Source of the DNA: an uncultured Gammaproteobacteria bacterium | GTDB taxonomy: Bacteria; Pseudomonadota; Gammaproteobacteria; Francisellales; CACEW01 | DNA: 64,000 nucleotides | Assembly (NCBI GenBank): GCA_964539235.1 | Contig: CAZIIK010000050.1 | Span: 160 to 64,159 of the forward strand | Direction: 5' to 3' | Part shown: piece after piece, positions 7,672 through 46,228 of the stretch | How positions within the stretch are numbered: the first letter of the stretch is position 1 | How the letters are laid out: each line of letters starts with the position of its first letter | Notes under the pieces: generated by a model | What the model was told of the DNA's origin: nothing | Database searches by the model: none | Seen by the model: the letters and a program-made list of their open reading frames with translations, nothing else | Made by a program: the position numbers and the translations under genes

Positions 7672-8931
7672 TCAACCAGCAAAATGATAGCAGTCGGCAA
7701 CAATCGGGTTATACAGCACAGTTTCTGCCTGCAGCATCTGCGCGAATGCAGCCTGATCCACTGTATCAGGAATATCAAAGCCCCACACAATACCATGCTG
7801 CAAGTGCGTGATCTGCGTTAAGCCACACTGACGATGTAAGTTATGCAGTTTATGTTGCGCCAAGACATCTTCATGCAGACGCACCAAATACGTTAAGTCG
7901 TGCTGCAGCCCAGCCGGTTCGACTAAGAATTCTTTGCTGGAATTCCATAATTCATAACTGTCTGCCAATGCTGTTTGCAAATCCGCTGTCGACATGTCGC
8001 TACTCATTTTCCAATGCACATAACGTTTCACACCAATCGGCCAACCCATCTGGTGCAAAGCATTTTGCACAGAAACCGCCACATTATCGTGAATCACCAT
8101 AGCAACCAACAATTCGGTTTCTGATGCCTGACGGGCCCGCGGCTGAATCTGTGGTAGCGCTGCGTCATCCGTCAATGTCGTGTAATCCACCGGCTGACCC
8201 GATTCGATATAACGACGCATTGAGGTAAACACCGCGTCACCAGCTGGCGTACGTTCAGGGTGTGGCATCATCGCCAACACGTTACCCGCTGCGTTCGATA
8301 CCGCAGCCAAATTCTCAACGGCACCATTTGGATTCACTGGAAAATGCGCATCTACACGACCCGCTGCATCACAATATTGCCACAGATCAGCACCCGCTTG
8401 TTTGAGTTGCGACAACACATCTGACGTCAACACAAAACGGCCTTCGGCATGCGCCAATGGAATCTGCAGGGGTGCAGCATCACCTTGATTAAAAACGCCC
8501 GTTCCAGACTGCTTAGGTTTAATATGGCACCACGCATTGTAAAACCCAGTCCCCAATACTTGGTCATTCTGCATGCGTTTATTCTCGGTTAATGCCGCGG
8601 CAACGCGATAGGTGCCATCCGCTGCACGCACACCCGGCACTAAGCCACTTTCCACCAAAATCTGCGCACCGTTACAAATCCCTAAAACCGGCTTGCCTTT
8701 TTCTGCCTCAATAGCCAAACGTTTTAACACTGGATCTTTGGCAGCGATTAATCCGGAACGTCCACGGTCTTCATAGGAAAATCCACCCACGAGGATATAA
8801 CCCGCAAAACCATCTAAAGCGCGCGCATCGTTCCACAAATAGGGTTGCGGTCGCATGCCAGCCCGCTGCACCGCTAACGCCGTCTCACGTTCACAGTTCG
8901 AACCTGGAAACTGAATGATTGCAATATCCAT
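7672..8931 (-). CDS. purQ: FGAM synthase glutaminase subunit PurQ fused to two PurS-like repeats
   Basis: The N-terminal ~230 aa is PurQ-like (IIQFPGSNCE, GICNGAQIL, MPHPER). The C-terminal ~150 aa holds two segments resembling PurS (SVQNALHQMGW...VKRYVHWKM; LAQHKLHNLHRQCGL...VLYNPIVADCY). Confidence 0.85.
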   Translation of the reverse strand: MDIAIIQFPGSNCERETALAVQRAGMRPQPYLWNDARALDGFAGYILVGGFSYEDRGRSGLIAAKDPVLKRLAIEAEKGKPVLGICNGAQILVESGLVPGVRAADGTYRVAAALTENKRMQNDQVLGTGFYNAWCHIKPKQSGTGVFNQGDAAPLQIPLAHAEGRFVLTSDVLSQLKQAGADLWQYCDAAGRVDAHFPVNPNGAVENLAAVSNAAGNVLAMMPHPERTPAGDAVFTSMRRYIESGQPVDYTTLTDDAALPQIQPRARQASETELLVAMVIHDNVAVSVQNALHQMGWPIGVKRYVHWKMSSDMSTADLQTALADSYELWNSSKEFLVEPAGLQHDLTYLVRLHEDVLAQHKLHNLHRQCGLTQITHLQHGIVWGFDIPDTVDQAAFAQMLQAETVLYNPIVADCYHFAG

Positions 8932-8943
8932 ATATCAAGACCT

Positions 8944-9990
8944 TTATAATAGATTGACGACCGATTGCGCTGCAGGCACCACTTCACCTATCCGGTAATA
9001 CGGCATCTCCGCCTGTTCTGCCAACACGGACTCCAACGCGGAAACTTGCTCAGGCGCAACGACGATCACCCAGCCAATCCCCATATTAAATGCGCGATAA
9101 GCTTCGTCGATGGGCAACTGGCCCAATTCGCATAAGCGTGCGAATAATGGTGGCGCTGACCAACTGTCTAACGCAATATTCACACCACAGCCTGACGGCA
9201 ATACCCGTGGAATATTTTCCAACACACCACCGCCGGTAATATGCGCCATGCCTGCAACCTGAACACCTGCATCCAACACAGCGTGTACAATGCTGCTGTA
9301 ATTGATATGCGGTGCTAGCAAAGCCTCTGCAACGGTTTGACCTACGGTGTCTAATTCAGCGTCGATGGCGTAACCACCGACTTCAAATAACAGTTTGCGC
9401 GCCAATGAAAACCCATTCGTATGCAAACCACTGGATGCCAAACCATACACCACATGACCTGGTGCAATGGTTCGACCATCAATAATAGCATCGAGTTCGA
9501 CTACACCGGTCACCACGCCGACCAAGTCATGCTCACCAGGTAAATACGTATCGGGCATTTCCGCGGTTTCACCGCCGACCAAAGACACACCATTCACACG
9601 ACAAGCTTCCGCCATGCTTTTCACAATGGTTTCAACCGTATCTGGGTTCAATTTATCATTAGCGACATAGTCCAACATCGTTAAGGTTTTGGCGCCTAAT
9701 ACCAAAATATCATTGGCACAAGCGCTCAATAAATCATGACCCAAATGGGCAAACTGACCTGCCATGCGCGCAACAATGGTCTTAGTCCCAACACCATCGA
9801 TGCTCTGCACCATGACCGGATGATTGTAGCCAGACAATGCCGACTTCAAATCGAACATAGCGCCGAAACCACCGATCCCACCGATCACGTGAGGTGAAAA
9901 CGTGGCTTGCACCGCCGACTTAATCCGACGAACCACCTCGTTCCCAGCTTCAATATCAACACCGGCATCGGCATATGTGACTTGTGACAT
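8944..9990 (-). CDS. purM: Phosphoribosylformylglycinamidine cyclo-ligase (AIR synthase)
   Basis: 348 aa with YADAGVDIEAGN, DGVGTK and GLHTNGFSL motifs. Confidence 0.95.
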   Translation of the reverse strand: MSQVTYADAGVDIEAGNEVVRRIKSAVQATFSPHVIGGIGGFGAMFDLKSALSGYNHPVMVQSIDGVGTKTIVARMAGQFAHLGHDLLSACANDILVLGAKTLTMLDYVANDKLNPDTVETIVKSMAEACRVNGVSLVGGETAEMPDTYLPGEHDLVGVVTGVVELDAIIDGRTIAPGHVVYGLASSGLHTNGFSLARKLLFEVGGYAIDAELDTVGQTVAEALLAPHINYSSIVHAVLDAGVQVAGMAHITGGGVLENIPRVLPSGCGVNIALDSWSAPPLFARLCELGQLPIDEAYRAFNMGIGWVIVVAPEQVSALESVLAEQAEMPYYRIGEVVPAAQSVVNLL

Positions 9991-10154
9991 AGTTTTTTAT
10001 CCTAGTTTATATAGCGTGATAGGGCGCACTTCGCTAAAAGATACAAATGACTGAGTCTGTGGAAGTCGATGCCTATAAAAGGTCGCACCAAAACGGATTC
10101 AATCAGCAGTTCAAATACCTCGGCTCATTTACCCCATACGTTTCTTCATGCTTT

Positions 10155-12485
10155 TTATGCATTCAACCGTTGGCGCAAACCGTCTTGCCACAACTGTTTT
10201 GCTTCAGCAATCGGTAATGCGTGACCATTGACGGATAAGACACCATCCGTTGTGGTATGACCCAGATTTTGCCATGGCAAACCAGTTGATTCTAACGCGC
10301 TGGAAACCGCGGCATAATCCTCAGCAGAGACTTCTAATACAAAGCCAAATGATTCACTGAACAAAGCCTCTATCTCTGTCAATTCCGTTGCTAACGTCAC
10401 CGAGCAGCCAAAGCCTTTGGCAATACTCATGAGTGAAATCGCCGTCAACACGCCCCCTAATGCCACTGACTTCGCCGCCAAAATCTGGCCTGCTTGAATC
10501 TGCTGCTGCAGCCACACCAGGCTGGCACGCACCTTGGCCAAATCAGGTTTTGGTAAAGCAGCACCCAAAGCATCATGGCATTGGTAATACACACTGCCGC
10601 CACATTCGGCCTGCGGCATGCCCAGTAAAATAATCTGCGAATCAGCACGCTGAAAGTCGGTGCCGATGGCTTGCTCAACATCCGCCAAACGCCCCAAGCA
10701 ACTGATCATCGGACTGGCCGGAATCGCTCCACTCTTGGATTCGTTATACAACGACACATTCCCTGCCACAATCGGCAAGGCCGCGTCGGGATGGTCGAAT
10801 AAGGTTAATGCCTGACATGCTGTTTTCATGCCATCTATCGCCGCGACAAAATCAGCCATTTGTTCAGGTTTTTCTGGATTACCAAAGCATAAACAATCGG
10901 TAATGGCTTCAGGTGTTGCCCCAGTCGCAACCACTTGCGCAACCGCTTGTACAACGGCATTAATGGTTGCCCAATAGGGATCAATTTTGCCGTAGCGCGG
11001 ATTAGCAGCCACGGCTAATGCGACACCAACCTGTTGAATTTCACTCGGCCATTCTGGTCCATTAAAAGGCGCTAACACACCGGCATCTGCACGACCGCGT
11101 TCTAAAACTGTACGGCCCTGCACTTGCTTGTCATAGGTTTCATAGACGCACGCCCGACTGGCAATATTTTCATGCGCCAGCACGCGACGCCAGGTCGACA
11201 ACACATCGGCTGCTGGTAAAGTCGGCGCGGCTAACTGACGTGCAACAGACTTCACTGGGCGATCATAGACAATGCCCTGTGTAATATCTTTCGCCATCGC
11301 ATCGATCAATACTTCACCTTGATAGGTCACACGATAACGACCGCCTTGCTTAATCTGGCCAACCACCGTTGCACGCGCGCCTTGAGAGACGGTGGGCAAA
11401 GCATATTCTTCATTGTAATGTGCCAAAACTTCCGCGGTGAGCTCTGGCGGGCAAACCCACATATACCGTTCTTGCGTCTCTGAGCATAACAACACCGCTG
11501 GGTTTAAATGTTCCATGCTGACGCGCACATCATCTAAACACACTTCGGCACCATAACCCGCTGCTTCAGCCAATTCGACACTGGCGCAGGCAATACCACC
11601 CGCTCCTAAATCTTTAAACCCAACACGGTGGACTTGATTACGCGCTGCCAACTTTTCAAACAATGCATAGTTGGACTTCAACATCATACGACCCAAAAAG
11701 GCATTGGGCTCTTGCACAGCCCCACGGTTTTGTTCATCTGCTTCTGCCTCCAAATCAACCGATGCAAAACTGGCGCCGCCAAAACCACTGTTATCCGTGG
11801 GTTTTCCGACCAGAATCAAATCATAACCATCGGCATTTTCCGGCGCATAAGAATGCGTAATATGATCAGCCTTCACCACACCCAGCGTCACTGCCGTCAC
11901 TAAGCAATTCTCGTTATAGCCCGCATCAAACTGCACATCACCCGCAATATTGGGCACACCCAATGCATTGCTGTAACTGGCAATCCCAGCCACAACACCT
12001 TCGTAAACCCAATGGGTTTTATGTTGCTGAATATCGCCAAAACGCAAACTATCGGCATTGGCAATCACGGTTGCACCCATGCAACACACATCGCGCACAT
12101 TACCGCCAATACCGGTTGCAGCACCTTCAAATGGCACCACCTGAGAAGGGTGATTATGCGATTCATGGCTGATGACAACACCGTACGCATCACCGGCTCG
12201 ATCACGCGCAATTTCAACCACACCTGCATCTTCTTTGGCACCTAAAATGACATTAGGCCCATCGGTCATCAATGTCTTCAGATGCACACGCGAGCTTTTA
12301 TAGGAACAATGTTCTGACCCTTGAATACCCCACAAAATACATTCTGACAACGTCGGCGCACGCCCCACCATTTCCTGAATTTTCAACGCTTCCGCTACGG
12401 TAATGGATAACTGATTTTCATCAATTAAACGCTGGATTTCGGTTTCTGCTAATGCGGCAAAATCAAATTGTATGTTGTCAGACAT
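10155..12485 (-). CDS. purL: FGAM synthase subunit PurL (small, ~780 aa type)
   Basis: 776 aa with SEHCSYKS, ESHNHPS and duplicated PurM-like domains. No glutaminase domain, consistent with a separate PurQ. Confidence 0.95.
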   Translation of the reverse strand: MSDNIQFDFAALAETEIQRLIDENQLSITVAEALKIQEMVGRAPTLSECILWGIQGSEHCSYKSSRVHLKTLMTDGPNVILGAKEDAGVVEIARDRAGDAYGVVISHESHNHPSQVVPFEGAATGIGGNVRDVCCMGATVIANADSLRFGDIQQHKTHWVYEGVVAGIASYSNALGVPNIAGDVQFDAGYNENCLVTAVTLGVVKADHITHSYAPENADGYDLILVGKPTDNSGFGGASFASVDLEAEADEQNRGAVQEPNAFLGRMMLKSNYALFEKLAARNQVHRVGFKDLGAGGIACASVELAEAAGYGAEVCLDDVRVSMEHLNPAVLLCSETQERYMWVCPPELTAEVLAHYNEEYALPTVSQGARATVVGQIKQGGRYRVTYQGEVLIDAMAKDITQGIVYDRPVKSVARQLAAPTLPAADVLSTWRRVLAHENIASRACVYETYDKQVQGRTVLERGRADAGVLAPFNGPEWPSEIQQVGVALAVAANPRYGKIDPYWATINAVVQAVAQVVATGATPEAITDCLCFGNPEKPEQMADFVAAIDGMKTACQALTLFDHPDAALPIVAGNVSLYNESKSGAIPASPMISCLGRLADVEQAIGTDFQRADSQIILLGMPQAECGGSVYYQCHDALGAALPKPDLAKVRASLVWLQQQIQAGQILAAKSVALGGVLTAISLMSIAKGFGCSVTLATELTEIEALFSESFGFVLEVSAEDYAAVSSALESTGLPWQNLGHTTTDGVLSVNGHALPIAEAKQLWQDGLRQRLNA

Positions 12486-42700: not shown

Positions 42701-43929
42701 CTACGTACCAGACTGCGTTTGCGTTTGCGTTGGCGCAGCAAACTCTGGTGCTCCAGCTGCCAACAATGCTGACAAGTCACCACCCAACGGCGGATAAATT
42801 CGATCTTGGTTAATATGACGCTTAAGTGTTTTGGCTACCAGGCCAATTTTCTGCGTTTTACGTACCCAGCCTTCAGTGTAGATACCACCCCATTCGCCTA
42901 GGTCAGCACATGTCACATAGTTTCGTTGTGCGTATGCCAACGACAGCTTACCCACCAAATTGGCAACCGCATTGTATCCGGCATAACGACCCTGCGGCCG
43001 ACCCTGTTGACAACTCATCACGGAGCCATGGTTTTCATCGACAGACACCAACGCCAGGTCGCCTGCCACGTAGATATTGGATTGCGTCGGCAATTGTAAA
43101 TATTGATTAACTGGCACACGCCCTAATGGATCCAAATTCTCTGCAAGCTGTTGGCCTAATGGGTGTGCTTGCAGACCCAGCGTTGAGATCGACATATCAA
43201 CGGCCAAAGTCTTCTCTGTGTTGTACGCCACCTCACCTGACCGCACTGCTGTTACAGTTGCCTGATCAATCGCTATGACACCAGACTGAGCCAATGCTGC
43301 TTGCACATGTACACTGGTATCGCCACCCAAACTATCGCGGACTTGATGACGGTCCAGTAAATAAACCGTCGGGGCCACCATCGGCAATTGATTTTTCTCA
43401 GCAATTTTCCGACACCACACAGGCAGTTCACAGGCCAGCTCAAGCCCAGTAATACCGGCGCCTAAAATCGCTAAGCAGCACGGCTGTTGCTGGCCGATTC
43501 TAGCAACATAGGTTTCTTCTAACGATCACGCAGCGCCATCGCAGCTGTATAAGTATCAATATTATGCGCCAGCTCTATGCCAGGAATCGGCGGCATGCTT
43601 AATCGACTGCCAGCTGCAACGACTAGCGCGTCAAAAGCCACCATATCACCGTCATCGCACGTCAATTGCTGCGCATCTGTATCAATATGCGTAACAGCAG
43701 CGTATTTAAGCTTCACGCATAAAGGCTGCAAAAAATCGGCCAACGGCACCTGTGTCTCTTCCAGTTCATACTCATAATAACGTGGCCGAATGCCCAAATA
43801 AGGCGATGGAATAATCAGTTGAACTTCAATGTCATGTACAGCCAAACGATGACACAGACTCGCCGCGGCTAGCGCCGCTGAACTGCCGGCATGACCGCCT
43901 CCAACAATACATACACGTCGCATAATCAT
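42701..43929 (-). pseudogene. NDH-2-like FAD-dependent pyridine nucleotide-disulfide oxidoreductase, frameshifted
   Basis: The N-terminal ORF (43519-43929; VCIVGGGHAGSSAA) ends at TAG 43519-43521. The second Rossmann motif (AILGAGITGLELACEL) and the rest continue in another frame that opens just after TGA 43526-43528. Confidence 0.75.
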
Positions 43930-43931
43930 GC

Positions 43932-45185
43932 CTACCCGAAATAATGTGTTGTGTTGATCTCGCGCAAGGTTTTGGTTTTTGAACGCATGACAATACTGTG
44001 CGTTTTTGCACCACCAGGGAATGTGCGTACGCCTTGTAACATCGTGCCAGTCGTCACACCCGTCGCTGCGAACATAATTTCACCATCTGCCAAATCATGC
44101 AGATAATATTTCTTCGCAAAGTCGGTAATACCATAACTCTGCGCACGCGTTTTTTCAGCCTCATGGAGAAATACCAAACGACCTTGCATTTGCCCACCGA
44201 TACAACGCAAAGCAGCAGCCGCCAATACACCTTCTGGCGCACCGCCTGTGCCAATATACATATCGATACCGCTATCAGGTTGCGCGGTTGCAATCACAGC
44301 TGAAACATCACCGTCATTAATAAGCGCAATACGTGCACCTGCTTCGCGTACTTCTTGGATAATAGTTTCGTGACGTGACCGGTCTAAAATACAAACAACT
44401 AAAGAACCAACCGTGGTTTTCTTAGCCTGCGCCAGGCTGTGCAAACTGTCCGCAACACTGGCATCTAAGTCGATCACATCAGAGCCTTCAACACCGGCCG
44501 CAATTTTTTGCATATAGGTATCGGGCGCATTTAAGAAACCATTGTGTTCCGCCATGGCAATCACCGCCAATGCATTCGGACCGCCTTTGGCTGTAATTGA
44601 AGTGCCTTCTAAAGGATCTAAAGCAATATCAACCTTGGGACCTTCCCCGCAACCAACCGGTTCACCAATATAAAGCATGGGGGCCTCATAGCGCTCACCC
44701 TCACCAATAACGACCGTGCCGTCAATATACAAACTATCAAAAGCCGTACGCATGGCATCAACAGCTGCCTGATCAGCCGCTTTTTCATCACCACTAAACG
44801 TCTGTTGATAGGCAAACGTACCACCCTTTATTTGACAAACATTATGATCGTTATTGACAACCATAACCCCATTCGCCTCGATAATTTCACCCGAGGCAAC
44901 TCGTACGGTGGATCCCGGATGGGTTACCCAGAAGTAAAAATGTGGATGATCAAAAAAGTCACCCGTGGTATCAACTGCATAGTCTTTGGACCAGTTGATA
45001 CCCGGAACAATAATCGGTGTTTGTGGCAATGTTGTTTCACCCGGGCTGGTATCGATACCGTCGAAAGCACCAAAATGATACGCCAAGGTACAACTTTGAC
45101 TATTTTCTATATTTATGGCCTTATGTGTCGCAGCGACTGCGGCACTGCTCGCCACGCATAAAAAGATCGCAATTGCACAAGCCAT
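43932..45185 (-). CDS. glpX: Class II fructose-1,6-bisphosphatase (GlpX) core with an unrelated signal-peptide-bearing N-terminal ~135 aa
   Basis: From GDEKAADQAAVDAMR onward it aligns with GlpX as I recall it (IGEGE..APMLYIGE, DPLEGT, GGAPEGV). The N-terminus MACAIAIFLCVASSAAVAATH... looks like a signal peptide followed by an unknown domain. Confidence 0.8.
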   Translation of the reverse strand: MACAIAIFLCVASSAAVAATHKAINIENSQSCTLAYHFGAFDGIDTSPGETTLPQTPIIVPGINWSKDYAVDTTGDFFDHPHFYFWVTHPGSTVRVASGEIIEANGVMVVNNDHNVCQIKGGTFAYQQTFSGDEKAADQAAVDAMRTAFDSLYIDGTVVIGEGERYEAPMLYIGEPVGCGEGPKVDIALDPLEGTSITAKGGPNALAVIAMAEHNGFLNAPDTYMQKIAAGVEGSDVIDLDASVADSLHSLAQAKKTTVGSLVVCILDRSRHETIIQEVREAGARIALINDGDVSAVIATAQPDSGIDMYIGTGGAPEGVLAAAALRCIGGQMQGRLVFLHEAEKTRAQSYGITDFAKKYYLHDLADGEIMFAATGVTTGTMLQGVRTFPGGAKTHSIVMRSKTKTLREINTTHYFG

Positions 45186-45398
45186 GGGACCGTAACATAG
45201 CGAACACCCTTTACAGAATAATTAATAAAAATATTGATATAATATATAGATATGTTTATTTTTCAACCAAAAATCCTCAGATATATTATTTATATAAATC
45301 ATGGCCTTGCTATTTGCATAAATCAGGGTAGAAGGCATCACGCTGCTATCGCACAATACTCAGGACCTATTCTTAAAATTGATTAGAGAATTACTGGT

Positions 45399-45730
45399 CT
45401 ATAGAGCAGCACCATCAAAATGATACACCTTAAGACGCGCCCAGTCGCAGTCGTCAAGCGCATGCAAATTTACTGTATGCTTCTGGAGATTAGGTGTTGG
45501 GCCATATATGAAAATGCCGCAATGTTTGCAGAAATAATGCTCACCTTTCATCTGATTAAACGTATAACGAGCCAAGCCCGCTTCACCCTCAACAATTTTA
45601 ATATCATCTACAACTGAATAACTGTGTGACGCTTACTACAGTACGAACAATTACATACAATCGGCTGTTTCAGCTCAAATTCACATTCAAACTTAACGCT
45701 TTGACAGTGACATGAACCTGTATATTTCAC
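45399..45730 (-). pseudogene. GFA (glutathione-dependent formaldehyde-activating/CENP-V) family gene, frameshifted
   Basis: My own minus-strand translation. GTG 45730 gives MKYTGSCHCQSVKFECEFELKQPIVCNCSYCSKRHTVIQL, then a stop at 45614-45616. A second frame gives ..YSVVDDIKIVEGEAGLARYTFNQMKGEHYFCKHCGIFIYG...FDGAAL, with a stop at 45399-45401. Confidence 0.6.
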
Positions 45731-46039
45731 CTTCACCCTCACTTATTGAAGCAAATGATAAAACCGAATAATAAGCACAAAACCATAAATAATAACCGCA
45801 ACCCGTGGCACCACACACGCAAAACAGTTTCATTCTAACTCGTCTGGTGAGTACTTTAATTAAAACAACAGCTCTCGGTTCAATCCGTCAATCAAAAAAA
45901 CAGTTCATCTTCAGACACCATAAACCACGTTACGCAAAGTACGCACCACAAAACATGGTGCGGCAATTCTTAAACCATGGACACTGATCCAATCACAACA
46001 AAAACACAGTAACGCAGAGTGAGGGAAAAAGACGCAGAA

Positions 46040-46129
<90 letters not shown>

Positions 46130-46142
46130 GTTTTACAAAATA

Positions 46143-46228
46143 TGGTGCCGGCGGACGGAGTCGAACCGTCACGGGCGATGCCCACCACCCCCTCAAGATG
46201 GCGTGTCTACCAATTCCACCACGTCGGC
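46143..46228 (-). tRNA. leuU: tRNA-Leu (anticodon GAG)
   Basis: 86 nt with acceptor GCCGACG, anticodon loop TTGAGGG, a long variable arm and an encoded CCA. It lies directly after secG, as in E. coli secG-leuU. Confidence 0.9.

Follow-up and report, generated by a model that had tools for sequence, protein, structure and literature searches.

A 224-bp deletion fused an orphan gene in frame to a 5'-truncated glpX in an uncultured gammaproteobacterium, most likely creating a young pseudogene

Introduction

Class II fructose-1,6-bisphosphatase (FBPase) GlpX is described by the family models PF03320 and TIGR00330 and by structures from Francisella tularensis (7JS3), Mycobacterium tuberculosis (6AYY), and Escherichia coli (1NI9, 2R8T, and 3D1R). 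We analyzed a glpX locus in a 64,000-nucleotide stretch of DNA from an uncultured gammaproteobacterium (contig CAZIIK010000050.1; the whole stretch is called the window here), in which an open reading frame (ORF) at 43932 to 45185 on the minus strand joins an upstream orphan gene in frame to a 5'-truncated glpX. Residues 132 to 417 of the predicted chimera align end to end with class II GlpX, are ∼70% identical to F. tularensis GlpX by reading of the alignment, and keep the catalytic Thr (T195) and other invariant columns. Unlike class II GlpX, the chimera has 131 unrelated residues in place of the first 29 native residues and carries Tyr at the equivalent of Asp61, Leu at Arg340, and Ser at Asn247.

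Chimeric ORFs generated by deletion, or fusion pseudogenes, are a general phenomenon of reductive genome evolution in decaying bacterial lineages. The locus resembles them in that an intragenic-to-intragenic deletion joins co-oriented neighbors, in that the join is strain specific and polymorphic, and in that further, apparently inactivating changes follow it among other broken genes. It differs from the usual fusion pseudogene in that the join is in frame, the ORF is fully open and annotated as a 417-residue FBPase, and the ancestral and derived alleles were both recovered, from sister samples of the same studies.

A preliminary description of this DNA, made from the sequence, had proposed three explanations: a deletion that fused the gene of a secreted protein to glpX, an FBPase that is truly exported or moonlights, and a GlpX translated from an internal start. 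It leaned toward decay or fusion. Here we compare the locus with those of sister strains and other relatives, and weigh these explanations.

Results

The window ORF contains a GlpX body that lacks the N terminus of the family. The chimeric ORF starts with ATG and has 417 codons. A protein identical to its product (P0001) is present in NCBI and Logan, and a 417-residue variant is also known (P0124). The Pfam model FBPase_glpX (PF03320) matched residues 125 to 414 with a score of 412.2 bits (cutoff, 27), and the NCBIfam glpX equivalog TIGR00330 scored 321 bits (cutoff, 259.3), both above the curated cutoffs. The matches span profile positions 18 to 307 of 307 and 20 to 324 of 334, respectively; because they begin at position 18 to 20, the N-terminal part of the family profile is absent, and a complete GlpX domain including helix α1 (profile positions 1 to 17; native residues 1 to 29) was not found in the ORF. 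GlpX had been recognized in the preliminary description from about residue 136; the family assignment stands, and the start of true homology moves to G132 (GDEKAADQ). The GlpX body thus comprises residues 132 to 417 (286 codons), and the glpX remnant, delimited with Pfam, NCBIfam, and PDB entry 7js3, occupies 43932 to 44794 on the minus strand and encodes native residues 30 to 315. It lacks codons 1 to 28 and the first base of codon 29, and hence α1. Among solved structures, F. tularensis FBPase II (7js3; E = 1.4e-108) is the best relative of the ORF, ahead of GlpX from M. tuberculosis and E. coli. The body is 83 to 84% identical to two ordinary GlpX proteins, P0002 (315 residues) and P0003 (314 residues), whose N termini read MPKLDRNLALEVVRVTEAAALSASRQMGRGDEK..., where the window reads ...NVCQIKGGTFAYQQTFSGDEK....

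The chimeric architecture is confined to one species-level cluster and is not conserved beyond it. A protein search with the whole ORF gave a single full-length match, the identical P0001, and the 119 other listed matches covered at most ∼73% of the query. Similarly, none of 8,000 scored GlpX relatives outside the 90% cluster of the window ORF covered more than ∼73%. The chimera was not found in a scan of 185,579 species-representative genomes with the full ORF as the query; the 80 loci returned matched only residues 125/132 to 416. One locus (L063) gave an apparently longer match (residues 79 to 414), which tblastn with the upstream protein did not reproduce, and it was rejected. Orthologues that share the N-terminal region as a conserved domain, a possibility raised earlier, were not seen in these searches.

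A sister strain retains the two-gene ancestral state. Besides P0001, its 90% cluster has four members, all from other assemblies; their contigs were fetched and the DNA was aligned. The deletion, its breakpoints and polarity, its distribution in the population, and the later substitutions are directly observed. Over the first 1.5 kb of the region compared, contig L087 (ERZ27295699) shares ∼99.3% identity with the window, and it carries 224 extra bases (L087 positions 2261 to 2484) exactly between window positions 44795 and 44794, the deletion junction (44794..44795, minus strand). In the upstream ORF's frame, the extra bases continue ...QQTF-TCTWPKNQNPCS for 11 codons and then reach a TAA stop. 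A 101-bp spacer follows, and then ATG CCA AAA TTA GAT..., whose translation, MPKLDRNLALEVVRVTEAAALAASTQMGR, leads in frame into GDEK.... The deletion thus took away 38 nucleotides (nt) at the end of the upstream ORF, stop codon included, all 101 nt of the spacer, and the first 85 nt of glpX, for a total of 224 nt. The 85 nt are codons 1 to 28 plus one base, so that GlpX residues 1 to 29 are affected; the preliminary description had rightly reported the first GlpX helix as missing, and its estimate of about 25 lost residues is corrected to 29 by the comparison with L087. Codon 131 of the window ORF is a hybrid, AGT (Ser), made of the A of ACT (Thr131 of the upstream ORF) and the GT of CGT (Arg29 of GlpX). 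No microhomology was found at the breakpoints, and neither the deleted segment nor a second glpX was found elsewhere in the 64-kb window.

The N terminus of L087 GlpX is almost the same as that of the closest homologues, P0002 and P0003 (MPKLDRNLALEVVRVTEAAALSASRQMGR). Because L087 has the canonical N terminus of the nearest relatives, its arrangement is ancestral and that of the window is derived. With a two-gene layout in a close relative and both breakpoints within ORFs, the window ORF is an in-frame fusion that arose from a single 224-bp deletion in one lineage. The suggestion that a deletion had fused a secreted-protein gene to glpX is borne out by L087, which keeps the 224 bp with the orphan stop, the spacer, and the native glpX start.

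The deletion segregates with the undeleted allele. The deletion junction was found in four assemblies, namely, the window, L001 (SRR8816671), L005 (ERZ27295698), and L086 (ERZ23487864). Its sequence (ACGTTTA/GTGGTGATG) is the same in all four, which come from different samples and sources (NCBI for the window, Logan, and two from the European Nucleotide Archive); recurrence of the junction in independent assemblies excludes an assembly artifact. L087 and L088 form the other haplotype group, and the L088 contig stops exactly at the breakpoint. Deleted and undeleted alleles were recovered from adjacent sample accessions of the same studies, which indicates that the polymorphism segregates within one population.

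Further variation was seen among the strain contigs. In L087 and L088, both of which lack the junction of the window, a run of six T's at codons 77 and 78 (44952..44957, minus strand, located by strain contig alignment) is shortened to five, which frameshifts the upstream ORF to 86 residues; the 86-residue proteins P0121 and P0122 are genuine products of this T6-to-T5 change. A 273-residue protein from L086 (P0123) was considered as another frameshift variant and rejected as the product of a 100-N scaffold gap. That gap (L086 positions 7879 to 7978) is flanked by a 55-bp duplicated stretch, and the gene caller consequently reported a 273-residue "GlpX." At codons 166 and 183 (window positions 44690 and 44637), all four allele combinations occur among the window, L005, L086, and L087. 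This four-gamete pattern implies recombination between strains, recurrent mutation, or a mixed-strain metagenome consensus.

The GlpX body acquired substitutions at conserved positions after the deletion. Codon 166 (44688..44690, minus strand) is TAT (Tyr) in place of GAT (Asp), as judged from homologue alignment and strain contigs. The variable base is T in the window, L001, and L086 and G in L005 and the undeleted L087; because Asp166 is kept in the L005 deletion allele as well as in L087, D166Y arose after the deletion. The column is Asp in 100% of 119 homologues. The counterpart of residue 166 in the E. coli GlpX chain 2r8t_A (338 residues) is position 63, which is occupied by Ala. We take this position, by count, to be native E. 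coli Asp61, assuming a native GlpX of 336 residues. The D61A mutant of E. coli GlpX was reported to be essentially inactive (PMC10289334).

Two other positions were altered. Codon 247 (44445..44447, minus strand; homologue alignment and strain contigs) encodes Ser in place of an Asn present in 97% of homologues. L005 keeps the Asn, and the change is derived within the deletion lineage. After the deletion, D166Y and N247S thus accumulated against one synonymous change, counts too few for a ratio of nonsynonymous to synonymous rates. Codon 340 (44166..44168, minus strand; homologue alignment) encodes Leu in place of Arg in both 417-residue deletion alleles (window/P0001 and L005/P0124). All 119 close homologues have Arg in this column, as do E. 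coli and M. tuberculosis, but F. tularensis has Asn. Relative rates were compared by counting changes at sites on which eight outgroups agree: 7 were specific to the window and 1 to P0002 (P estimated at ∼0.07, not significant); with three outgroups, the counts were 9 and 6 (not significant).

The window retains T195, D138, E162, E164, D190, and E193 in the GlpX body. T195, the catalytic Thr, corresponds to T89 of F. tularensis and T90 of E. coli, and D138, E162, D190, E193, and T195 are residues that we take to be catalytic or metal binding. The undeleted glpX of L087 (L087 positions 2400 to 2783) has a substitution of its own, A137D (EKAADQ altered to EKADDQ); the Ala replaced is nearly invariant and lies three residues ahead of an invariant Asp. 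From this single observation, selection on glpX may be relaxed across the whole species and not just in the deletion lineage.

The upstream segment derives from an orphan gene with a signal-like N terminus. The orphan part of the ORF, defined by the L087 frame and by codon usage, occupies 44795 to 45185 on the minus strand (codons 1 to 130 and one base, the first, of hybrid codon 131). In its ancestral form, the gene had 142 codons and ended in ...TFTCTWPKNQNPCS followed by the stop. Of the six frames, its own scores best for codon usage (+0.14 bit per codon), and its G+C content at third codon positions (0.405) equals that of nusA and of the glpX body; these matches indicate a native coding sequence and not a chance ORF. 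An in-frame TAA lies 12 codons upstream of the ATG, with no earlier in-frame start.

Codons 1 to 22 (45120..45185, minus strand), identified by hydropathy and in the AlphaFold2 model, encode a hydrophobic, signal-like N terminus, MACAIAIFLCVASSAAVAATHK. Residues 2 to 20 have a mean Kyte-Doolittle value of 2.16, with small-residue motifs AVA-A and VAA-T. A Sec-type hydrophobic region with small residues at −3/−1 is present in AIAIFLCVASSAAVAA (AVA/A or VAA/T), whereas a positively charged n-region is missing, with no Lys or Arg in residues 1 to 21. The N terminus, described earlier as signal-peptide-like with an AXA site, thus appears signal-peptide-like yet atypical. The mature part of the ancestral product had four cysteines, Cys32, Cys117, and two in the tail that the deletion removed. 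On its sequence features, the ancestral orphan product is consistent with a small exported protein.

No relative of the orphan part was recognized. Residues 1 to 131 had no Pfam match even at an E value of ≤10, and a word-indexed search of 5.8 billion proteins gave no homologue of residues 1 to 135. An exhaustive HMMER search of 1.84 billion representatives with the N-terminal query returned three matches, each summed from seven to nine weak repeat matches. All three (Big_3-type repeats, a Por-tail protein, and a junk-like tandem repeat) were rejected as homologues because the resemblance was at the level of motifs only. Among them, the Big_3-type Ig-like repeats of P0125, a giant surface protein, share with residues ∼58 to 105 (GINWSKDYAVDTTGDFFDHPHFYFWVTHP) the strand motif G.W..YAVD..G....h..Y..VT.P, at 31 to 37% identity over 38 to 59 residues; unlike established Ig-like repeat proteins, the orphan part lacks any Pfam match and has E values summed from weak matches. 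At most, the shared motif hints at a beta-sandwich fold. Another protein, P0126 (820 residues), consists of near-identical repeats of ∼67 residues with odd partial Pfam matches; it looks like a translated tandem DNA repeat whose E value was inflated by summation over repeats. No paralogue of the orphan was found in the window or in any fetched locus, and no relatives turned up in two scans of Joint Genome Institute (JGI) metagenome contigs, one using the exact 28-mer that precedes the breakpoint and the other using degenerate peptide patterns. Synteny at the nearest glpX relatives, P0002 and P0004, was uninformative on the upstream gene, as the neighbors there differ (DM9 gene, Peptidase_M50, and ATPase_2). 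The preliminary view that this domain could not be placed is upheld, since no collection searched yielded a convincing homologue.

Models of the chimera and of a native relative locate what was lost. Structure prediction on the full ORF had been proposed as a check. In the AlphaFold2 model of native P0002, α1 spans residues 5 to 24 (predicted local distance difference test [pLDDT] score, ∼90) and α2 spans residues 32 to 47; with this model as the reference, the deletion takes all of α1 and the loop after it. The chimera is modeled with a GlpX body folded from about residue 134 onward, and residues 1 to 132 have pLDDT scores below 50 (22 to 44 in the N-terminal part), with a single helix of low confidence at residues 2 to 24. 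Confidence near α2 and the T195 helix is slightly lower in the chimera than in P0002, a difference too weak to serve as evidence, and the Psi-loop is of low confidence in both models.

Expression of the fused ORF would depend on the orphan's signals. The lost spacer held the translation start of glpX and presumably its own promoter, and both would be gone; with the spacer lost, expression is possible only via the upstream gene's signals. A sigma-70-like match (TTGAAA-16-TATTAT; 10/12; 45239..45266, minus strand), identified by consensus match only and located ∼54 nt upstream of the ATG, is the only evident candidate promoter left.

Genes on both sides of the chimera are damaged. By its NusA, the organism falls among uncultured Gammaproteobacteria, and the best named matches of that protein are ∼65% identical. 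The gene order is secG, tRNA-Leu, tRNA-Ser, a GFA pseudogene, the orphan gene, glpX, ndh, cspA, tRNA-Met, rimP, and nusA. An ndh-like gene (Pyr_redox_2; 42701..43929, minus strand, compared among strain contigs) lies downstream of glpX in the same direction and begins a few bases past its stop. It is intact (407 residues) in L001 and L086, is split in the window by a 1-bp deletion in codon 134 (∼43525), and in L005 (positions 9263 to 10485) has independently lost 1 bp in codon 328. Both 1-bp deletions lie outside homopolymers. Upstream of the orphan gene, a pseudogene of the GFA family (glutathione-dependent formaldehyde-activating enzyme) is present in two fragments (45399..45742, minus strand; profile positions 2 to 34 and 68 to 102 of 115) and adjoins tRNA-Ser and tRNA-Leu (46042 to 46228). 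In this stretch the strain contigs differ by single-nucleotide polymorphisms only, with no insertions or deletions. These data agree with the earlier report of frameshifted genes on both sides. Because the lesions in ndh, glpX, and the orphan gene differ by strain, the whole orphan-glpX-ndh unit appears to be dispensable and decaying. In the nearest other species (L002, L003, and L004), glpX is preceded by a divergent DM9-domain gene and followed by ATPase_2 or Peptidase_M50; given these different neighborhoods, the glpX-ndh linkage beside tRNA genes is specific to the species of the window.

Discussion

The chimeric ORF was made by a single 224-bp deletion, and on the evidence above the locus is, with high probability, a young glpX pseudogene and not an exported enzyme. 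In the ancestral state, as in L087, a 142-codon orphan gene encoding a small Cys-containing protein with a hydrophobic, signal-like N terminus was followed by a 101-bp spacer, a normal 315-codon glpX, and ndh. One deletion then removed the 3' end of the orphan (11 codons and the stop), the spacer, and glpX codons 1 to 28 plus one base, and by chance it joined the frames of the two genes. The predicted product would comprise the hydrophobic leader, ∼110 orphan residues, and the GlpX body without α1, and such a protein would probably be enzymatically dead or misdirected. FBPase function would have been lost and the chimera would be free of selection, as an early-stage pseudogene that has acquired no stop codon yet. 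Subsequent lesions in the same lineage, namely, D166Y, N247S, and the independent ndh frameshifts, fit a pseudogene. Together with the ancestral allele in L087, they uphold the earlier leaning toward decay and fusion. Given the hydrophobic leader, the missing core helix, and Tyr166 in the window allele, an active cytoplasmic FBPase is very unlikely.

Several observations weigh against this conclusion. The 286-codon GlpX body is still open and retains the presumed catalytic and metal-binding residues, and the L005 deletion allele still has Asp166. The deletion allele is the commoner one (four of the six assemblies found), from which it follows that it is not strongly deleterious in its niche. 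The excess of changes at conserved sites in the window GlpX is suggestive and statistically weak. In addition, the undeleted allele rests on one contig (L087, 128 glpX codons) and the end of the L088 contig.

Alternatively, translation could begin at Met107 (GVMVVNNDH...) and give a cytoplasmic 311-residue GlpX in which 25 foreign residues stand in for α1, with some activity, at least in Asp166 strains such as L005. An in-frame ATG does occur at codon 107 with G-rich sequence just 5' of it, the body modeled as folded from about residue 134 is intact, L005 retains both Asp166 and Asn247, and the deletion allele is common. In its strict form, a normal-length GlpX from an internal start, the proposal is refuted, since the first 28 native codons are physically absent. 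The weaker form also has to contend with the deletion of the native α1 residues, a replacement segment modeled as coil (pLDDT below 50) with no helix, the D166Y change of the window at the position where the E. coli D61A mutant was reported to be inactive (PMC10289334), the lack of a convincing Shine-Dalgarno sequence or of promoter evidence, and a downstream ndh that is decaying independently in two strains. We regard an active product from Met107 as improbable.

More doubtful still is a newborn functional gene, in which the orphan promoter drives expression, the leader brings a phosphatase derived from GlpX to the membrane or into the periplasm, and some benefit has spread the allele through most sampled strains. 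The in-frame fusion, the hydrophobic N terminus with its AXA-like motifs, the promoter-like site upstream, and the presence of the chimera in four assemblies are what such a gene would look like. Set against them are the leader without a basic n-region, the lost helix α1, the mutation of the Asp61 equivalent after the fusion, the removal of the last two of the orphan's four mature cysteines, and the lack of conservation outside one species-level cluster. Furthermore, sugar bisphosphate substrates are cytoplasmic, which counts against an exported chimera. A genuinely exported or moonlighting FBPase, as entertained in the preliminary description, is thus very unlikely for an architecture that is limited to one cluster, polymorphic, without α1, and altered by D166Y in the window. 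The explanation to which we give the least credence is that the fusion is an assembly or sequencing artifact that hides two distinct genes in the true genome. In its favor, the metagenomic samples contain a mixture of strains, the L088 contig is broken off at the junction, L086 has its 100-N gap 60 nt downstream of the junction, and the four-gamete pattern hints at a mixed consensus; this account fails on the identical junction in four assemblies from different samples and assembly sources.

With a young glpX pseudogene as the preferred conclusion, the locus is one more instance of a known process and reveals no novel type of enzyme, route of export, or regulatory system. It offers a clean, dated case of an in-frame fusion ORF that arose from a single deletion, with both alleles segregating and follow-up lesions accumulating. 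The main lesson concerns annotation. The 417-residue protein is stored publicly as a member of the GlpX family, and metabolic reconstructions would count it as a functional gluconeogenic FBPase, though it is most likely dead; the window ORF should not be scored as a functional FBPase.

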